Source: Squalus acanthias
Lineage: Eukaryota
Assembly: GCA_030390025.1 (NCBI GenBank)
Contig: JASTWF010000034.1
Coordinates: forward strand, 4,340,001-4,404,000
Length of the DNA: 64,000 nt
Direction of reading: 5' to 3'
Shown here one piece after another: positions 16,880 through 23,880 of this stretch (the first letter of the stretch is position 1; every line of letters starts with the position of its first letter). The notes beneath the pieces were generated by a model. It was not told where the DNA came from. It ran no database searches and worked only from the letters and a program-made list of their open reading frames with translations. The translations under genes and the position numbers were made by a program.

Positions 16880-18747
16880 CTTTTGTGTCATCTTTTTCTT
16901 CTGCATGCATCTACGAGGAGCTAGCCCTGTGGCTTCAGCAGAGGTAGAGGCAGCCTGCTCTCTTCCCTGCTGACAAGGAGGCGGGGAGCACCTTGTTGCA
17001 CAGCAGTGAGGCCATGAGGACCCACGTCTATGCTGACATCCCTGTTAGAGAGGAGGTCTATGAGCCTCTGCCATCTATTCTCTATAAATAGCCATCTATT
17101 CTCCATAAAGACCATGTGCTCCTCTGAGTGGCGCATTAGCTGCTCCATGTAGCTGCCCATCCGATCCATGGAGGAGCCTACAGTCACCATTGCCTGTGAC
17201 AAGGTGGTGGTCATGTTGGAGATGGATTCCTCCATTCTCTGAACATTTGCAGACATCGCGCTCGCAAAACCTGTCAGAGCGCCCCTGCACTTCTTGCTGC
17301 TCCTCCAGGATCGCCCTCTTTCTAGATGGCCCCCGAGGCTCAGCGTCTGCATGCAGCTGAGCAGAGCTGGGAGCGTCCTGCGCCCTCCGGCAAGGAGACT
17401 CCACTGCTCTCCCTCTCTCCACCATCTGCTCTTGCACACTTGTGAGTTCTGAGACACCAGTTGACAACAGTACTCTATCTATGTCTTGTGATGGTGCACC
17501 CTCAGCGGCTGAAGGCTCCTCTGAGGAGTCATCTTCCTCTTTCTCCTGGACATTGGAGGGGGGAACTCTTGATGGACCTGTGCGAGAGTGAAGATATGAG
17601 TTAGATATGTCATATGAAGAATGGGTACAGATACCATTATGCACATGATGACCATTCAGTGAGATCAGTGCCCATTTGAGTGATGGATGTATGCCATGTT
17701 GCTGTATGATATGTAATTCTGTCACCAGGTTGCTGAGATGTCCCCCTCGCTCCATCTCCCACCTCCAGCTGCTCAGCGACTCCAGATATTTCTAAAGCAG
17801 CCTCCTCTGCTATTGTAAGGTTTGCAAATGATGGAGTGCCACCGCCGGTTCACCCCTTCTCCCTGTTATTGTCGGCTCTCTTTTCCTGCAAGGAGGGAAA
17901 AAAGAGAAGTTTGAGTGAGACTGATGGAATGAATCTAAGGACTGGATGGGTTAGATATTTAGAGGGTGACTATGATGGAGTGGGGTGCCAAATTCATGTG
18001 GCCTCTTTGTGTGTTGTTAGTTGGTATGATTGCACAAGGGTGAGTGTGAGTGTCAGGGGTGGCTATTGAGATGGGGATGTGATAATGCAAACAGAAAGAG
18101 AGGGACGGGTGGACGTGCAAGGTATTTTGGTGTGAGTAAGAATGTGCAGGGGTAGGGTTGGGAAGGCAGAGTGATGGGGGTGTGATGAGAGGCATAGCAA
18201 GATGAAGGTGAGTGTGGCTTTGTACTCACGTTTCCTGATCTAATGAGATCATTGTAACGTTTGCGGCACTGTACCCAGGTCTTGCTGACAACATCCCTGC
18301 TGGTGACCCCCTCTGCAATCTCCAACCAGGCTGTTTTAGTGTCCTGGGGAGGTCACATCCGTCCATTGGAAGAGAAGAGGACCACCCTGAATGCTTTGAC
18401 TCCCTTCATAAGCATATGGAGGAAGCCATCAGACAACCTGGGTGCAGCACTCTGCCTCTGTGCAGTCATTGACAGTGTTTGCAGCACTCCAATGCTGCAG
18501 TGCACTGACAGCAGTATGTTACATTGACATTCAAGTCCAGTGTGGCCATGGCCCGTTTAAAGATCCCGGCTGAAAACGCTTAATCAACGATGTCAACAGT
18601 CCAGAACCGCATCATTTAATTGGACCGGGTAACACGCTGGGTGGGCTCAATAGGTCCGACTAACGTAATGTCATTTTCAGCAGCGGGCTGACGACCCGCC
18701 ATTGCCACCGCCCGCACCGGACCTGCCAGGTAGGCACAATTCCAGCC
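16880..18747 (-). mobile_element. PIF/Harbinger DNA transposon fragment (Myb-gene half; transposase absent)
   Basis: Myb-like gene plus GC-rich subterminal region ending in a candidate TIR ggcacaattccagcc at 18733-18747. Confidence 0.6.
16921..18469 (-). pseudogene. PIF/Harbinger Myb/SANT-like protein gene, three exons (18469-18230, 17885-17726, 17577-16921), inactivated
   Basis: Exon 1 MTAQRQSAAPRLSD...AWLEIAEGVTSRDVVSKTWVQCRKRYNDL; exon 2 EKRADNNREKG*TGGGTP...LTIAEEAALEI; GT-AG sites with compatible phases; two TGA stops and a frameshift in exon 3. Confidence 0.8.
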
Positions 18748-20277: not shown

Positions 20278-20739
20278 GCACACAGGGGCTGCATAACTGG
20301 AGAGCAGAGGGAGGGAGAGAGTGGGTTGGGGCAAAAATATGGTGCAATGGGTAAGGATTTCAGCACAGGGAGAGGGAGAGTGTGTGGGACAGGAATTTAC
20401 AGCTTTTGGGGGAAACAAGAGAGGAAAGATTGTTCCATAGAAAGTAGAATTGTCTGTTCTGAATTTATGTCCTATACTTAGTGATGACTTTTGTAATCTC
20501 CTTTTTCAGGGTATTAGAAGGGGAGGATTTGCAGACAAGAAACTCAAAACAAACATCACGCCAAGATCTGAGAGTCACTCGATTCATCAGGCCCTGAATA
20601 TCATCGGCCTTTGAATGCGGAAGGAGAAATCTTTCTCTGTGCAATAGCAAAATACTGCGGATGCTGGAAATCTGAAATAACAACAGAAAACGCTGGAAAA
20701 ACTCAGCAGGCCAGGCAGCATCCGTGGAGAGAGAAAGAG

Positions 20740-20776
20740 AGTTAACGTTTCAGGTCGATGACCTTTCGTCAGAACT
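20740..20776 (-). ncRNA. Minimal type I hammerhead ribozyme motif (left arm)
   Basis: Reverse complement of 20857-20893. Confidence 0.7.
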
Positions 20777-20856
20777 GTGAAGAGCCGGAAATCAAATAGA
20801 TTTAAGGCCAGAGTAAAGCCTCTGGCCTTAAATCTATTTGATTTCCGGCTCTTCAC

Positions 20857-20893
20857 AGTTCTGACGAAAGGTCATCGACCTGAAACGTTAACT
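20857..20893 (+). ncRNA. Minimal type I hammerhead ribozyme motif (right arm)
   Basis: AGTT-CTGACGA-A-AGGTC-ATC-GACCT-GAAA-CGTT-AACT: core boxes, 5-bp stem II, palindromic AACGTT stem III, 4-bp stem I. Confidence 0.7.
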
Positions 20894-21989
20894 CTCTTTC
20901 TCTCTCCACGGATGCTGCCTGGCCTGCTGAGTTTTTCCAACGTTTTCTGTTGTTATTTCAATCTTTCTCTGTGCTTGTGTTTGGGAAAGGATTTTACACA
21001 TCATGCGACTGGGAAAGCACTGAGACCCATTCACACTTGAGCGAGAGTGTTCCAGTGCACTGACTGTGGAGAGAGCTGTAACCAGCTATACAGCCTGAAA
21101 AAACTTCGCACCATTCACAGCGGGGAGAAACCGTACACGTGTTCTGTGTGTGGACGAGGCTTCAACCGATCGTCCCACCTGGAGAGACAGATGGACCATG
21201 GAGAAACCATGGGAATGTGGGGACTGTGAGAAGGGATTCAATTATCCATCTGAGATGCAAATTAATCAGCGCAGTCACACTGGGGAGAGACTGTTTACCC
21301 GCTCCGTATGTGGGAAGGGATTCAATCGGTCATGCATCCTGCTGAAACACCAGCGAGTTCACACTGACGAGAGACCGTTCAGTTGCTTTCACTGTGGGAA
21401 GAGATTCACTGATCCCACCTCATTCAACACCAGCATGTTCACACTGGAGAGAATCCGTTCACCTGCTCCATGTGTGCGAGGGGTTCACAAGGTCATCCAG
21501 TCTGGTGAAACGCAAGCGAATACACTCTGAAAGCTGACCTTTTAAAAGTTCTTGTAAGTATTGGTATGCATAGATTATTAAATATAATACACTGGTTGAC
21601 ATACGGAATTATATCAATATTAAGCGAGAATAACCAGGGATTACGTTAGGTTAGAATACACTCCAGAAAGACGCACATCTGCTGCCGATCATGGGTGAGT
21701 GTGAAGATTGAATTTAATGCCAGCAGGGTGTCTGGAGGACTGCTGGGGAGTGTAGCCAGAGAATCAGTCCCTTTAGTAAAGGACATTGGAAGCTGTGAAT
21801 GTTTGAAGGTTACAGAAGCAGGTAATTAACACTCCTGTGTGGGAGAGTAAAGATCAAACTGATAGAGATCAATGGGCAAGCACAACGAATGATAACAGCT
21901 CACCTCCCCACAAAACCAGCAGCTCACTGGCCCACTAAACCAGCAGCTCACTGGGCCACTACATATGCAGGTCGCCTTCCCACTGAATC

Positions 21990-22476
21990 ATAGTGTTACT
22001 GTGAGGCCTGTGGGGTATATATCTGTGTTACAGTGAGAGGTATGGGGTATTTCCGTGTGTTATAGTGAGGTGTGTGAGGTTGATCAGTGTTAAATTGAGG
22101 GGTGTCAGGTATATCAGTGTTACAGTGAGGGGTGTGGTGTATACCTGTGTCACAGTGAGGGCTTTTGGCTATATCAGTGTTACAGTGAGGGGTGTGGTGT
22201 ATATCAGTGTCACAGTGAGGGCTTTTGGCTATATCAGTGTTACAGTGAGGGGTGTGGGGTATATCAGTGTTACTTTGAGGGGTGTGGGGTATATCAGTGT
22301 TACAGTGAGGGGTGTGGGGTATATCAGTGTTACCGTGAGGGGTGTGGGGTATATCAGTGTTACAGTGAGGGGTGTGGGGTATATCAGTGTTACAGTGAGG
22401 GGTGTGGGGTATATCAGTGTTACACTGAGGGGTCTGTGGTATATCCGTGTTACAGTTAGGGGTGTGGAGTATATCA
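21990..22476 (+). repeat. 30-bp G-rich minisatellite (about 16 units)
   Basis: Unit gtgaggggtgtggggtatatcagtgttaca. Confidence 0.95.
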
Positions 22477-22479
22477 AAA

Positions 22480-22579
22480 GGGGTTTGGATAAGTGGGACT
22501 GGCTGAAGTGCTCTTGCAGGGAGCCGGCTCGATGGGCCGTAAGGCCTCCTTCTGTTCTGTAGCCATTCTATGATTCTAT
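22480..22579 (+). mobile_element. CR1-type 3' tail fragment
   Basis: ggctcgatgggccgtaaggcctcc followed by attctatgattctat tail. Confidence 0.7.
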
Positions 22580-22593
22580 ATGGCCATTAATGC

Positions 22594-23705
22594 ACAACAA
22601 CAATAACTTGTATTTAAATAGCACCTTTAACGTAGTAAAACGTCCCAAGTCGCTTCACAGGAGTATTTTAAGACAAACAATTTTGACATTGAGCCACATC
22701 AGGATAAATTCGGACAGGTGACTAAAAGCTTGGTCAAAGTTGGAGGTTTCAATGAGCGTCTTCATGGAGGAAAGAGAGGTAGCGAGGCGGAGAGGTTTAG
22801 CTGGGAATTCCAGAACTTCGGGCCTAGGCAACAGAAGGCACGGCCACCAAATGTTGAGCGATTATAATCAGGGATGCTCAAGAGGGCAGAATTAGTGGAG
22901 CGCAGATATCTCGGGGGGGAGGGGGGGTTGTGGGGCTGAAGGTGATTAGAGATAGGAAGCGGAGAGGCCATGGAGGGATTTGAAAACAAGGATGAGAATT
23001 TTGAAATCGAGGTGCTGCTTAACCGGGAGCCAGTGTAGGTCAGCGAGCACAGGGGAGATGGGTGAACGGGACTTGGTACGACTTAGGATACGGGCAGCCG
23101 AGTTTTGGATGACCTCAAGTTTACATAGGGTGGAATGTGGGAGGCCAGCCAGGAGTGCGTTGGAATAGTCAAGTCTAGAAGTAACAAAGGCATGGATGAG
23201 GGTTTCAGCAGCGGATGAGCTGAGGCAAGGGCGGAGACGGGCGATGTTAAGGAGGTGGAAGTAGGCGGCCTTTGTTATGCTGCGGATATGTCGTCGGAGG
23301 CTCATTTCAGGGTCAAATATGACACCAATGTTGCGAACAGTGTTGTTCAGCCTCAGACAGATGTTAGGGAGAGGGATTGAGTCTGTGGCTAGGGAACCGT
23401 GTTGGTGGCAGGGACCAAAAACAATGGCTTCGGTCTTCCCAATATTTACTTGGAGAAACTTTTGCTCATGTCGGTCAAGCAGTCTGACAATTTAGACACC
23501 GTGGAGGGGTCGAGAGAAGAGGTAGTGAGGTAGAGCTGGGTGTCGTCAGCGTACAGGTGGAAACTGACTGTGTTTCTGGATGATGTCACCAAGGGGCAAC
23601 ATGTAGATGAGAAATAGGAGGGGGGCAAGGACAGATCCTTGGGGGACACCAGAGGTAACGATGTGGGAGCGGGAAGAGAGGCTAACTGATATTCTGATCC
23701 TTTCC
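22594..23705 (-). mobile_element. L2 LINE 3' fragment
   Basis: [49 protein letters not shown]; (TTG)n tail at ~22594-22607. Confidence 0.92.
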
Positions 23706-23880
23706 GCACAGTATGATCCCAGACCCAGACGCATCCCTCACTGTGGAGAGAGAGAGAGAGGCAGAGACAGTGAGGGAGCAGATACTTAGAGAAGGAAATT
23801 AATACTGGGGTAGAGTTTGACGTTTAGTAGGTGCTATTGTACAAAGTGGGTAATTGTGAATCAGCCACCCATTTTACACC

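Follow-up and report, generated by a model that had tools for sequence, protein, structure and literature searches.

A young fold-back insertion in a zinc-finger repeat of Squalus acanthias very probably consists of two head-to-head copies of the 3' end of one Penelope-like element

Introduction

A stretch of 64,000 nucleotides of Squalus acanthias DNA (assembly GCA_030390025.1, contig JASTWF010000034.1, positions 4,340,001 to 4,404,000; hereafter the window) carries an insert with two long inverted arms and a hammerhead ribozyme motif on each strand, placed in what reads as a zinc-finger exon. This raises the question of what kind of element left the insert, how its two arms came to face each other, and whether its ribozymes and its location have consequences. 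Insertions of a comparable build have been published for Penelope-like elements (PLEs): an inverted truncated pLTR, a 31-bp tail and a target duplication are reported in PMC3846280, with a scheme in PMC8557442; the tail is described in both PMC3846280 and PMC11167929, and hammerhead pairs on opposite strands, 100-700 bp apart, are reported for Schistosoma in PMC4209133. PMC8557442 and PMC11167929 state as open how the inverted ends and the tail of PLEs are formed and what the role of the PLE hammerheads is.

Results

Architecture of the insert

The features of the insert and its host, in window positions, are:

20510..21530, plus strand: host, a degenerate multicopy C2H2 zinc-finger-like exon (Pfam matches, paralogs)
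20628..20642, plus strand: target-site duplication, left copy, 15 bp, AATCTTTCTCTGTGC; exact repeat; 13 of 14 paralog loci have it once, as an empty site
20643..20672, minus strand: PLE 'tail', 30 nt, on one arm only, reaching the outer 3' end class; it prolongs the arm in long copies
20673..20813, minus strand: tail-bearing arm, the 3' end (pLTR) of a PLE in minus-strand sense; 100% identical to L010/L033 over 180 nt including tail and loop
20740..20776, minus strand: minimal type I hammerhead motif, predicted cut 20744/20743 (motif scan)
20814..20819, minus strand: loop, six further element bases that belong to the tail arm; parent copies read through them
20820..20960, plus strand: tailless arm, a further copy of the PLE 3' end in inverted orientation that stops at the inner end class (found in 36 of 40 fold-backs); 99% complementary to the tail arm
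20857..20893, plus strand: minimal type I hammerhead motif, predicted cut 20889/20890 (motif scan, subfamily alignment; architecture as described in PMC4209133)
20960..20974, plus strand: target-site duplication, right copy, AATCTTTCTCTGTGC; 15/15 identical to the left copy

The original prediction of a 318-bp insert between direct repeats of 14-15 bp agrees with these figures: 317 bp lie between the 15-bp duplications, or 318 bp if the duplication is taken as 14 bp, and both readings are valid because base 20960 fits the arm and the repeat alike. The two inverted arms of 141 nt each, with a single mismatch at 20693 (which pairs with 20940) and a 6-nt loop, were likewise confirmed. The 30-bp leader was right in size and place, but it is element sequence, namely the PLE tail. 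At the junction between the loop and the tailless arm, no clear microhomology was seen. The hairpin region folds with -298 kcal/mol (z = -35.5), and 0 of 100 shuffles were equally stable. In four of the five fold-backs with arms of about 140 nt (the window insert, L005, L006, L007 and L015), the arm mismatch is at one and the same non-CpG site (+51; 20693/20940 in the window), and A is rare there in other arms; the BLAST selection may contribute to this pattern. A third, unrelated copy of the hammerhead-like core lies at window positions 19033-19005 on the minus strand; it belongs to an older solo PLE end that lacks a tail and whose stem II opens with G-C.

The parent is an EN+ Penelope-like element

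A Penelope-type origin had been proposed, and a comparison of the insert with the 3.7 Gb genome bears this out. Among 1,954 first-look candidate loci related to the insert, 40 were scored, and upstream of the arm related loci (L019, L020, L010, L030 and others) enter RT and GIY-YIG frames. Window positions 20640-20819 agree at all 180 nt (100%) with the 3' end of the long RT/GIY-YIG copy L010/L033 and are 96% identical to the pLTRs of L032. In the latter, an open frame of 931 aa lies between direct pLTRs of 848 bp, a single ORF that encodes RT and then a C-terminal GIY-YIG. The pLTRs of L031 and L032 are direct repeats of 842-848 bp with 99% identity, in the partial-tandem pLTR arrangement; the two loci share their flanks and represent one insertion, with a frameshift in L031.

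The L032 protein matches RVT_1 at 457-581 (24.3 bits) and GIY-YIG at 833-869 (20.6 bits), both under the Pfam curated cut-offs. It contains DKG at 335, YIDD, CX4CX2C and YCxxCxxCGxxYIG, with VYCIRCSRCGLLYIG at 835, motifs of the kind that PMC8557442 describes for EN+ PLEs. Moreover, the linker CTRRRCNTC at 797 has the form CX2-5CxxC between RT and EN that is typical of Neptune/Nematis. Homologues of the protein numbered 1,776 among 8,000 scored, many of them with Pfam RT and GIY-YIG domains; among those with a name, the best comes from Chiloscyllium punctatum, with 70% across 65% of the query. The parent is an EN+ PLE with an RT and GIY-YIG frame, and the insert is almost certainly a truncated inverted PLE copy. 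It shows the make-up of an EN+ PLE insertion unit: an inverted 5'-truncated copy, a tail of 30-40 nt at one end and a duplication.

In L031, hammerhead and tail continue in frame into the ORF. Such an overlap of the ORF start by the hammerhead/tail region is known for Pen2a_Av and PAc (PMC3846280, PMC11167929). In the CTGATGA subfamily (L031:4309-4281, L032:4583-4555), the hammerhead core contains an ATG that shares the reading frame of the ORF; the subfamily of the window reads ACG. In L032, about 260 bp of unrelated sequence are inserted directly after the upstream tail.

The host zinc-finger unit was already broken

The insert had been placed inside a zinc-finger exon. The host unit does contain finger domains (zf-H2C2_2, 42.7 bits; zf-C2H2, 32.6 bits) and has a putative acceptor AG at 20508-20509, read from the sequence, but it is degenerate and was already non-coding at the insertion site. 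The only finger-coding frame runs from the ATG at 21198 to a stop at 21530 and is itself degenerate; the insertion lies 224 nt upstream of this ATG. The host flank has 1,569 candidates in the genome, and the 40 scored were 94-100% identical. The insert is absent from 14 of 14 paralog loci: 13 show the site once and empty, and L052 is deleted there. In the paralogs compared for their frames (L039-L044, L048-L052), the site lies between stop codons whichever frame is read. Since the host unit is degenerate, multicopy and already broken in empty paralogs, no intact gene is affected, and we rejected the disruption of an intact zinc-finger gene on the grounds of these broken frames. Assembled contigs of four runs gave only repeat-derived pieces when compared with 20300-21700, and no contig at 99% spans 20605-20634; these data are uninformative on expression, cleavage and polymorphism.

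Downstream of the zinc-finger unit, an array of 30-bp tandem repeats (window 21960-22590) is common to the paralogs. From their motifs, we take the fragments at 22946-23823 on the minus strand to resemble a LINE reverse transcriptase, and the minus-strand frames at 17096-18352 presumably resemble a Myb/SANT-like protein of Harbinger-type transposons.

The insertion is recent and does not define a family of its own

The insertion had been thought to be recent, and this is shown by the single mismatch between the arms and by an empty-site paralog, L039 (G000:C3707:1237819-1241118), in which 3 of 874 flanking bases differ, with 96.6% identity further upstream. L039 may be either a paralog or the other allele of the host unit. 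The exact junction of the window occurs in two copies in 3.7 Gb, the insert itself and L002, which is 99.4% identical to the window insert and has the same junction and a different duplication. The idea of a non-autonomous insertion did not hold: the insert derives, in truncated and inverted form, from an autonomous element and is, because only two copies have its junction, a dead-on-arrival copy and not a member of a non-autonomous family. Many dispersed copies of fixed structure with unrelated flanks, as in MITE- or SINE-like families, were not found; junctions vary among the fold-backs. Tandem same-strand hammerhead units as in non-LTR retrozymes were not found at the insert either, which has one motif per strand.

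A self-propagating fold-back family was considered for a 92-nt fixed-junction set with 1,308 pattern matches genome-wide, and rejected. In this set, flanks are common to 20 of 20 loci (L188-L207, G000:C1), and it therefore rides as a passenger in another repeat. The carried set is one old short PLE fold-back, its hammerhead destroyed, that was amplified inside another dispersed repeat.

The hammerhead motifs and their predicted lock

A hammerhead motif on each strand, closed by AGTT/AACT, had been noticed from the sequence, and both were recovered, with cores at 20861-20889 (plus) and 20772-20744 (minus). The motif has a 4-bp stem I, the core CUGACGA with an extra A, a 5-bp stem II, a palindromic ACGU stem III and GUU. 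The motif scan found the features of a minimal type I hammerhead, i. e. the conserved core with one more base behind A9, a stem III that is palindromic, and the NUH triplet. A search of Rfam up to E 10 returned no hammerhead family; its seven matches, all below the gathering threshold, were hairpin-driven miRNA/sRNA hits and weak others. The first stem II pair of the window is A-U and not the G10.1-C11.1 that is usual in these ribozymes; across subfamilies it is A-U, G-U or G-C. The core pattern has 55,891 matches in the genome as compared to 6 for the reversed control (the pattern itself fixes the core positions), and C at 11.1 is present in only 1,084 of these motifs.

In an alignment of 57 distinct rows, half of them chosen for C at 11.1, 93% of the stem cells were paired as compared to 9-46% in slid controls; loop II varies and the stems hold. 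Evidence from covariation is weak: in pairing and covariation, 16-20 of 500 shuffles score as high as the alignment itself, and 11 of the 57 rows mispair at the only compensating pair, so that maintenance of the stems by covariation is suggestive only. A search for longer stems II gave 616 matches (control, 123). Almost all of those listed represent this one family with insertions or deletions and therefore provide no independent covariation set.

The original prediction also held that transcription in either direction locks the sense ribozyme in a 141-bp duplex, and fold energies predict the same: stems I and II of the ribozyme contribute -5.9 kcal/mol as compared to -298 for the hairpin region. 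The cofold of two copies has its minimum in a non-catalytic duplex of -22.9 kcal/mol, although energy models of such kind do not test hammerhead activity. PLE hammerheads are said to be dimeric, reportedly on the basis of work by Lunse and colleagues from 2017. In either direction, the antisense arm would be made first and would capture the emerging sense hammerhead, leaving it without a same-sense partner for the needed dimer. As the antisense arm comes first and there is no same-sense partner nearby, the motif is predicted to be inactive at the window insert.

Thousands of fold-backs share one geometry

Head-to-head pairs of the motif are common: 2,461 have 30-200 nt between the 3' strands of stem II, and 2,512 fold inside the motif. 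The two sets do not overlap because of their spacing, and the number of short head-to-head fold-backs in the genome is about 5,000. By comparison, there are 193 tail-to-tail pairs at distances of 30-400 nt. With 144 nt, the window fold-back is longer than most, as compared to 54-72 nt in 37 of the first 50 of the 2,461 set. The same geometry is seen in arms that measure between about 75 nt and 2.4 kb, the longest being 1.1 kb (L034) and 2.4 kb (L033).

The ends were studied in 40 automatically detected fold-backs, seven of them picked by BLAST (the window included) and the rest by pattern from the start of contig C1, and thus not a random draw. The 3' ends fall into two classes, one near +70 and the other near +103 relative to the predicted cut, i. 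e. about 30 nt apart. The tail end was paired with the inner end in 35 of the 40 and with another end in four, and one fold-back combined the inner with another end; two tails or two inner ends were seen in none of them (0/40). Duplications of 13-18 bp were present in 34 of the same 40, five had none, and one had a duplication of six, with lengths that run long because one mismatch and end slack were allowed.

The reach of the arms was read by hand in 36 fold-backs, likewise no random draw, after seven of 43 candidates had been dropped (L094 and L096, no pair; L005 and L006, poor junction reference; L092, L097 and L105, ambiguous). In 17 of them, the tailless arm extends further 5' than the tail arm, in 15 it is the other way round, and in four both are equal; the arm lengths correlate (rho 0.63). 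In L034, each arm contains element sequence that is absent from the other. Private variants are usually common to both arms (L024, L081, L082), which indicates that one template is the usual case; in L095, L097 and L077, the arms differ at subfamily columns. Totals for two-template cases were set aside, as true fold-backs are mixed with neighbouring insertions. Fold junctions often hold filler from elsewhere in the element RNA (L035:2497-2532, L011 upstream of 1681, L034:2099-3121), including the ORF start and, in L034, six 81-bp repeats of an RT segment. This filler points to template jumps.

Fold points crowd in the hammerhead

As judged with one anchor pair, 4,648 fold-backs turn within the hammerhead as compared to 880 that turn, on average, just 3' of the cut site, in a stretch of equal length nearer the start. 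Among the first 50 in this latter set, about half are members of the passenger fold-back family, and the contrast is therefore nearer tenfold than the about fivefold seen before its removal. For another 1,047, defined with different anchors, the turning points lie further 5' and are spread over a far longer region. Only 14 among the 2,512 fold symmetrically at the cut site, which rules out ribozyme cleavage as the cause of truncation. With folds crowding in the hammerhead and nearly none at the cut, the motif marks a stop zone, and cleavage does not set the ends. This agrees with PMC11167929, in which ribozyme mutants left insertion unchanged and no reads ended at the cut.

Discussion

Our work indicates that the insert consists, with high probability, of two head-to-head, 5'-truncated copies of a PLE 3' end that entered a broken zinc-finger repeat very recently, likely the result of one insertion event that joined two short reverse transcripts, with hammerheads that are predicted to be inactive in a 141-bp duplex. 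The insertion is of an ordinary, already published kind that is very abundant here, and as a single event it is of little weight: it is one of thousands and sits in an already broken repeat.

How might the two arms have been joined? We see an even chance that they arose by two primings at two RT starts, usually on one RNA. The PLE protein would nick the two strands of the target at positions about 14-15 nt from each other and extend both, as may be deduced from the data described in PMC11167929. The tail arm would come from one nick that primes at the outer start, and the tailless arm from the second nick, with priming at the inner start, usually from the same RNA; both reverse transcripts would stall close together and then get joined. 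A competing idea is that self-priming (snap-back) of one strand yields a free hairpin, with one arm trimmed at the inner site by the endonuclease of the element before integration. Short loops, correlated arm lengths and arms that are usually identical or carry common private variants all fit this idea, self-priming has been proposed in PMC3846280 and nuclease resolution of the tail in PMC8557442, and snap-back with trimming of either arm would yield the same geometry. It would, however, require random trimming of either arm, given the longer tailless arm in 17 of 36 fold-backs; the arms of L034 are not copies of each other, and a few fold-backs (L095, L097, L077) differ between their arms at subfamily columns. 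Moreover, PMC11167929 maps two RT starts at the two ends of the tail as well as extension of both target strands. A longer tailless arm beside a tail, together with L034, cannot be explained by plain snap-back of target-primed cDNA, and because the tailless arm can be longer and each L034 arm holds sequence absent from the other, we favour two primings; self-priming with trimming is a real possibility, though not the one that we expect.

Three other explanations fare worse. The hairpin might be a non-autonomous element that is re-mobilised as a unit in a MITE- or SINE-like manner, with the window and L002 as sister copies; their near identity, same junction and different duplications are what such a process would leave. 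Against this stand only two exact-junction copies in 3.7 Gb, private mismatches that differ between the window and L002 without any common flank, and other copies that break near this position too (L011 and several more). In addition, the sole large fixed-junction set is the passenger with its common flanks, and we regard re-mobilisation as improbable. A still smaller probability attaches to a functional cis-regulatory RNA of a zinc-finger gene, a self-cleaving switch or a source of double-stranded RNA: the setting is exon-like and transcription would give a 141-bp duplex, but the insert is very young and absent from all 14 paralog loci, the host frames are broken and the ribozyme is predicted to be locked. 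Finally, perfect palindromes are a known long-read artefact, and the contig is small. Yet the duplication matches the empty site, the tail is on one arm only, the arms have a mismatch, and thousands of similar structures with duplications exist, so that a fold-back chimera of reads or assembly is extremely unlikely.

The population of fold-backs also invites a broader idea. It is tempting to speculate that the fold-backs are a fossil record of PLE integration in which two reverse transcriptases begin on a single RNA at sites 30 nt from each other, and in which the hammerhead, folded but uncleaved, is the main stop-and-join signal; we put this forward tentatively and consider it rather unlikely as it stands. 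If true, the hammerhead would shape insertion length without cutting. In a search of the open-access literature and its main texts, we found no count of fold points or of tail asymmetry at such scale. The about 5,000 junctions and the near-intact parents in this genome are material for testing models of PLE integration, and thousands of perfect hairpins of 75-150 bp could feed double-stranded-RNA pathways if transcribed.

Several known systems resemble the insert in part. Its motifs are like the minimal type I hammerheads of metazoan PLEs described by Cervera and de la Pena 2014 (PMC4209133), with CUGANGA and GAAA cores, an unpaired base after A9, a 4-bp stem I, a loopless palindromic stem III and mostly solo copies; unlike the Schistosoma families presented there, with a stem II of 7-8 bp, the window has a stem II of 5 bp that opens with A-U. 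Non-LTR retrozymes (bioRxiv 10.64898/2026.07.22.740005) are likewise PLE-derived, short and hammerhead-bearing, but they form tandem same-strand arrays that are capable of dimer formation, whereas the pair in the insert is inverted, and each strand carries a single sense motif. The Poseidon element PAc of Anolis carolinensis, as described by Frangieh et al. 2024 (PMC11167929), shares the two 3' end classes that frame the tail, the hammerhead at the ORF start and the lack of any sign that ribozyme cleavage defines the inserted ends. In contrast to PAc, the parent in Squalus acanthias, as judged from its sequence, carries the CX2-5CxxC linker, which PMC8557442 attributes to Neptune/Nematis and describes as absent from Penelope/Poseidon. 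In build, the insert is like the units left by canonical PLEs with an endonuclease, such as Pen2a_Av of Adineta vaga (PMC3846280; PMC8557442, legend to Fig. 2), which, as portrayed there, also have an inverted 5'-truncated pLTR, a tail of about 30 nt on one arm and a target duplication, and in which pLTR and tail overlap the first codons of the ORF (PMC3846280). Unlike the Adineta units reported there, only the two ends are left here (317 bp), they are present in thousands of copies, and the duplication is 15 bp as compared to 8-10 bp in Adineta.
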